Origin: Escherichia coli O157:H7
Lineage (GTDB): Bacteria > Pseudomonadota > Gammaproteobacteria > Enterobacterales > Enterobacteriaceae
Length of the DNA: 64,000 nt
NCBI RefSeq assembly: GCF_013167455.1
Contig: NZ_CP038328.1
Strand: one strand, 5' to 3'
A model generated the notes under the pieces. The model was not told the origin of the DNA. It did no database searches and was given only the letters and a program-made list of their open reading frames with translations. The stretch's first letter is position 1. Every line of letters begins with the position of its first letter. A program made the position numbers and the translations under genes. This document shows positions 40,119-40,505 of this stretch, piece after piece.

Positions 40119-40505
40119 TTAACGATACTTCTTGTGATATGAATTGCGGGTCGTTTTCAGTTGCTCTGCAGCAGCCTGCGCTTCTTTTACTTTACCTTCA
40201 TTTGCCAGCTTCAGCGCGTCGTCAATCTGACCGACCAGAATGTCGAAACCGTGGCGGAAATCTTTCATTTCCGGGCTGTCCGGTGATTTATCTTCGAGCT
40301 TCGGCGGCGTTGCTTTTTGCGCATCCAGCGCTGCGGCGCGCATCTTCGTTAACGCGTCTTTGACTTGCGCCGCGTTATCGGCTTTTTCGACCACTTTTAA
40401 ATTGTCGTTGAGGGTTTCCATATTGTCTTCAAGATCAGCAGCAAACGACGCCGAACTGAATACCAACGAGGAGACTGCAAGAATAGCTAACAGGCTTTTT
40501 CGCAT
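40119..40505 (-). CDS. cybC: Soluble cytochrome b562, full length with signal peptide
   Basis: 128-aa translation [37 protein letters not shown]... Confidence 0.85.

Follow-up and report, generated by a model that had tools for sequence, protein, structure and literature searches.

The DNA analysed here is a 64,000-nucleotide (64-kb) stretch of an Escherichia coli O157:H7 genome, referred to below as the window. The feature under study is a minus-strand open reading frame (ORF) that occupies exactly positions 40119..40505 and that, as judged by the ORF list and the sequence, consists of an ATG start and 128 codons followed by a stop. It is cybC, and the gene order at this locus in O157:H7 is nrdD, nrdG (plus strand), cybC, pmbA (minus strand) and yjgA. 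The gene and its immediate neighbours are as follows.

40119..40505, minus strand: cybC coding sequence, 128-residue cytochrome b562 precursor plus stop (ORF list, Pfam, RefSeq)
40440..40505, minus strand: signal peptide coding region, residues 1–22 (sequence features; the mature 1APC/256B chains begin at residue 23)
40122..40439, minus strand: mature cytochrome b562, 106 residues, with Met7 and His102 present (103/106 identity to 1APC/256B)
40512..40517, minus strand: Shine-Dalgarno (SD) sequence AGGAAG, 6 nt 5' of the cybC ATG (direct sequence reading)
40689..42041, minus strand: pmbA (tldE), upstream neighbour of cybC (ORF list; RefSeq annotation of the identical O157:H7 locus)
39610..40074, plus strand: nrdG, convergent downstream neighbour, annotated from an internal ATG, 154 residues (ORF list; RefSeq)

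Both the Pfam and the PDB matches demonstrate that this is not a chance ORF. Residues 24–128 matched the entire PF07361 (Cytochrom_B562) profile (positions 1–102 of 102) with 118 bits and E=3.3e-34, the gathering cut-off for this family being 30 bits, and about 400 PDB chains were matched, their names being either soluble cytochrome b562 or a BRIL fusion. BRIL, the thermostabilised apocytochrome b562 employed as a fusion partner in GPCR structural biology, accounts for most of these chains; it descends from the same parent protein but is engineered, signal-less and mutated in its haem ligands, whereas the window encodes the natural precursor. The b562 of E. coli B (256B, 1APC and 1QPU; precursor chain 9TMP_A) represents the same gene and family, and has in common with the window a 128-residue precursor, a 22-residue signal peptide, a 106-residue mature part and the Met7/His102 pair. 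In the mature part the two differ by three conservative substitutions, the window having V17 for I, S100 for A and K103 for Q. With regard to the haem ligands, mature residues 7 (M) and 102 (H) aligned to the same residues of 256B/1APC, and the 97% identity (103/106) to 256B/1APC/1QPU suggests that CybC of the window adopts their four-helix-bundle fold.

The signal peptide is composed of an n-region MRK (charge +2), a hydrophobic core of 13 residues and a c-region, SSASFA, in which Ser occupies position -3 and Ala position -1. Since the 106-residue mature chains of 1APC/256B align to precursor residues 23–128, the mature N-terminus is placed at Ala23 (ADLEDN). The first-pass annotation of this DNA had described cybC as full length, encoding a 128-residue precursor with an intact signal peptide, and this description is borne out by the ATG-initiated ORF, the complete Pfam profile and the complete n-, h- and c-regions. 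Moreover, many O157:H7 chromosomes match the 721 bp around cybC and the 20-kb stretch 30000..50000 with 100% identity, and the identical sequence in O157:H7 PV15-279 carries the RefSeq annotation cybC, cytochrome b562 (WP_001232245.1). The SD sequence is also kept in the alignment with ATCC 8739 and N50.

At least two common CybC alleles were seen among E. coli strains, one with S100/K103 (O157 and K-12) and one with A100/Q103 as in the PDB entries (ATCC 8739, BHUCD01 and ETEC1738). Rarer variants are N35T, D27G, D72G and S122T (precursor numbering).

The K-12 allele and its distribution

The curated MG1655 record (NC_000913.3) flags cybC (b4236), located at 4459488..4459855, as a pseudogene whose length of 368 bp is not divisible by 3. 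Pairwise alignment with the window revealed a single 26-bp gap in the MG1655 gene and otherwise two substitutions, both synonymous.

40487..40512, minus strand: 26 bp missing from the K-12 lineage, GTGAGCAATGCGAAAAAGCCTGTTAG on the cybC strand (MG1655 alignment)

Lost in K-12 are the final SD base, the 6-nt spacer, the ATG, codons 2–6 (RKSLL) and the initial base of codon 7. Of the gene itself 19 bp are removed, and 387 - 19 = 368 bp agrees with the annotated length of the MG1655 pseudogene. The deletion junction in K-12 reads AAAAAAGGAA joined directly to CTATTCTTGC; the O157:H7 window lacks this junction and has the 26 bp. In other respects the MG1655 locus is like that of the window, as it lies between pmbA/tldE and nrdG, has the same ERIC-like element upstream (see below) and encodes, in the K-12 frame, residues 8–128 with 100% protein identity to CybC of the window. 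Thus, the statement in the first-pass annotation that K-12 cybC is annotated as a truncated pseudogene was correct in that b4236 is so flagged and that the deletion takes the start codon, and K-12 does not carry the same full-length ORF. It should be stressed, however, that the word truncated applies to the 5' end, while most of the gene remains.

No in-frame ATG, GTG or TTG is present before codon 14 in the MG1655 remnant, and in-frame ORFs that use a canonical alternative start reach at most 115 residues, in one that begins with TTG inside the signal peptide. No microhomology was seen at the end points of the deletion when the window was compared with MG1655, and the sequence therefore offers no basis for proposing slippage. 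The undecayed K-12 remnant fits a recent loss, and would also fit a residual function.

Two further observations were made on the K-12 remnant. After the deletion, the SD remnant AAGGAA is located 6 nt 5' of an out-of-frame TTG which opens an ORF of 27 codons, possibly giving rise to a spurious translation product. In BW25113 (NZ_CP009273.1), PGAP annotates the remnant as a 121-residue 'cytochrome b562' (WP_023649327.1) with an ATT start. The pseudogene status of cybC in K-12 therefore depends on the annotation consulted, the curated MG1655 record or PGAP.

To see how the two alleles are distributed, we searched 5,426 complete E. coli genomes, a set in which laboratory strains are over-represented. 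A 40-bp probe spanning the K-12 junction, which is unable to seed on undeleted genomes, matched 355 of them, in every case with 100% identity. Among the matches listed (60, sampled evenly from the 355), all had K-12 or laboratory names or K-12-like genome sizes; they include MG1655, BW25113, DH1, DH5alpha, C600, J53, MC4100, TG1, NCM3722, S17-1, NEB/ER strains and O16:H48 mouse-colonisation isolates. From these strain names and sizes we infer that all 355 carriers are K-12 derivatives and that the deletion marks this lineage. The intact start region, detected with a probe of 60 bp that has the 26 bp in its middle, was found in 4,983 of the 5,426 genomes, covering many pathotypes and hosts, which argues that an intact cybC is the norm of the species and the ancestral state, K-12 being the exception. 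The remaining 88 genomes were matched by neither of the allele-specific probes.

BHUCD01 was considered as a close wild relative that might date the deletion. Its genome is of K-12 size and its cybC undeleted, but it carries the ATCC 8739-type allele (WP_001232255.1), and it was rejected as uninformative for this purpose.

Sequences flanking cybC

The spacers on either side of cybC each contain an inverted repeat.

40522..40648, minus strand: 127-bp imperfect palindrome, ERIC/IRU-like dispersed repeat in the pmbA–cybC spacer (alignment, fold, copies)
40079..40110, no strand assigned: hairpin with a perfect 14-bp stem in the 44-bp cybC–nrdG spacer (fold -23.3 kcal/mol, z=-7.3)

The pmbA–cybC spacer is 183 bp long in the window. 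The 127-bp repeat folds with -63 kcal/mol (z=-8.5) and is present in the window and K-12; ATCC 8739 and N50, in which the spacer measures 54–58 bp, lack it. The median E. coli genome has full-length copies of the repeat at 3 places, the maximum being 6, and about 3,880 genomes (~70% of strains) have a copy at least 90% identical to it, presumably at the cybC locus itself. The copy in the puuR–puuC spacer is 70.9% identical to 40522..40648 and shares the termini ACACAAAATCATTC and TGAAGGATGAAGTGTA. A local BLAST search found no second copy within the 64-kb window, and Rfam returned nothing at the cybC locus, neither at gathering thresholds over the whole window nor at a permissive E<=1 over 40000..40750. 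The properties shared with ERIC/IRU elements are the size of about 127 bp, the imperfect palindrome, the intergenic position, the few dispersed copies, the conserved termini and the strain-variable presence; a point of difference is that the repeat in the window is divergent, with ~71% identity to the puuR–puuC copy. Over a 44-nt core, its sequence may resemble the ERIC consensus; Rfam contains no family that matches the repeat. In size and shape, and perhaps in core sequence, the repeat has the appearance of an ERIC/IRU element, and the 5' leader of cybC may include it.

A scan of 40000..40720 found no sigma-70 promoter-like sites, and cybC may therefore be partly co-transcribed with pmbA by read-through. 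The hairpin at 40079..40110 is likely to be a transcript-end structure shared by cybC and nrdG, which are convergent. Neither of its strands has a U-tract, and the terminator scan, which requires a run of T, did not call it. Three weak terminator-like hits in 40000..40720 were not taken as functional, two of them being located within the coding sequence and one on the strand opposite to the 3' end of pmbA.

Some strains have additional genes in the cybC–nrdG spacer: in ETEC1738, N50, UTME-3 and GMF065 the stop codons of nrdG and cybC are separated by a type II toxin-antitoxin pair of the RelE/RelB-DinJ type (relBE), with a frameshifted toxin gene in N50. The window lacks this insertion. The next spacer, between nrdD and nrdG, is 189 bp in the window as compared to 157 bp in MG1655, and contains, at 39436..39506, a REP-type element that matches Rfam naRNA4 with 60.3 bits.

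Functional state of cybC in O157:H7 and K-12

The ORF, its family membership, the haem ligands, the exact lesion and its distribution in the population were obtained directly. We consider it very probable (about 95%) that the window represents the intact, ancestral cybC and that K-12, owing to a derived 26-bp deletion, makes no exported b562. For what lies beyond the gene itself, established knowledge or the literature would predict that the protein is expressed, exported, cleaved and able to bind haem, and that K-12 has a null phenotype. According to established knowledge, the 22-residue Sec-type signal peptide would export the CybC precursor to the periplasm and be cleaved off between Ala22 and Ala23, after which the 106-residue mature protein would fold as a four-helix bundle that holds one non-covalent haem b via Met7 and His102. 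CybC would then most likely serve as a small periplasmic electron carrier. In K-12 formation of the exported protein should be abolished, since the deletion takes away the ATG, a portion of the ribosome-binding region together with the correct SD spacing, and the charged n-region at the N-terminus of the signal peptide.

The difference between an intact cybC and the K-12 defect is already known, as it has been documented since 1993 and is included in the curated reference annotation. As to O157:H7, cybC of strain Sakai (ECs5213) is transcribed, and its transcript level increases 2.2-fold as the cells leave exponential growth (PMC2241611). Together with the intact sequence features, this published transcription suggests that the copy in O157:H7 is functional.

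Two readings would reduce the difference between the strains. One holds that cybC is alive in K-12 as well, being translated either from the ATT (121 residues) or from the in-frame TTG (115 residues), so that there is no functional difference from O157:H7. Consistent with this, PGAP calls WP_023649327.1 as a coding sequence in BW25113, the remaining 121 codons are undamaged and specify the same protein as the O157 allele, and the K-12 transcript is still detectable on arrays, its level being lower but not absent (PMC3446290). However, the AAGGAA remnant is separated from the ATT by only 2 nt, a distance too short for normal initiation, and from the in-frame TTG by about 20 nt; it lies instead 6 nt 5' of the out-of-frame TTG of the 27-codon ORF. 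Furthermore, as the MRK n-region and part of the hydrophobic core are gone, any product made in K-12 should stay in the cytoplasm. The curated MG1655 reference also treats cybC as a pseudogene, and Trower 1993, cited in PMC13041623, reports that b562 is not expressed by K strains. Translation of a fully equivalent b562 in K-12 is hence highly improbable, and the PGAP coding sequence is probably an artefact of automatic annotation that has been propagated across K-12 derivatives.

The other reading accepts that cybC is intact in O157:H7 but regards it as effectively silent or dispensable, for instance because the ERIC-like hairpin blocks expression, in which case to speak of a functional copy would be an overstatement. 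The failure to detect a promoter-like site between pmbA and cybC and the very stable 127-nt hairpin (-63 kcal/mol) immediately 5' of the SD sequence are in line with such silencing, as is the fact that no physiological function has been established for b562 (PMC3349551). On the other hand, cybC of Sakai is among the genes with significant growth-phase-dependent changes in transcript level (PMC2241611), the ORF has been kept undisrupted in 4,983/5,426 genomes both with and without the 127-bp repeat, and the SD and start context is intact in O157:H7. We regard a silent or dispensable cybC in O157:H7 as highly improbable. Two milder effects are conceivable but still unlikely: initiation at the ATT or TTG in K-12 might yield a little cytoplasmic, haem-binding b562 with a crippled signal and, separately, the presence of the ERIC-like hairpin or of relBE might modulate cybC expression between natural strains.

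An intact ancestral gene in O157:H7 and a defective one in K-12 have some practical consequences. As K-12 is atypical at cybC, studies of the physiological role of b562 must use non-K-12 strains. The defect also makes the Keio cybC knockout, which serves as a pseudogene control (PMC6945024), legitimate as a neutral-marker control. B REL606 has a higher level of cybC transcript than MG1655 (PMC3446290). When an anti-BRIL Fab is purified, native b562 of B strains comes along with it; the native protein of B-type or wild strains can contaminate anti-BRIL reagents (PMC13041623). For K-12 derivatives annotated by PGAP, a reported 121-residue 'cytochrome b562' with an ATT start should be read with its probable artefactual origin in mind.

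Other elements in the window

Additional naRNA4/REP matches are located at 15542..15713, 42735..42812 and 48975..49053. An Rfam match to the ALIL pseudoknot, the frameshift signal of IS3-family transposases, at 5944..6060 implies the presence of an IS element. Other Rfam matches in the window are a tRNA at 8418..8499, the antisense RNA Ysr276 at 14514..14708, the Mg2+ riboswitch in the mgtA leader at 32411..32526 and the sRNA ES239 at 63329..63451.
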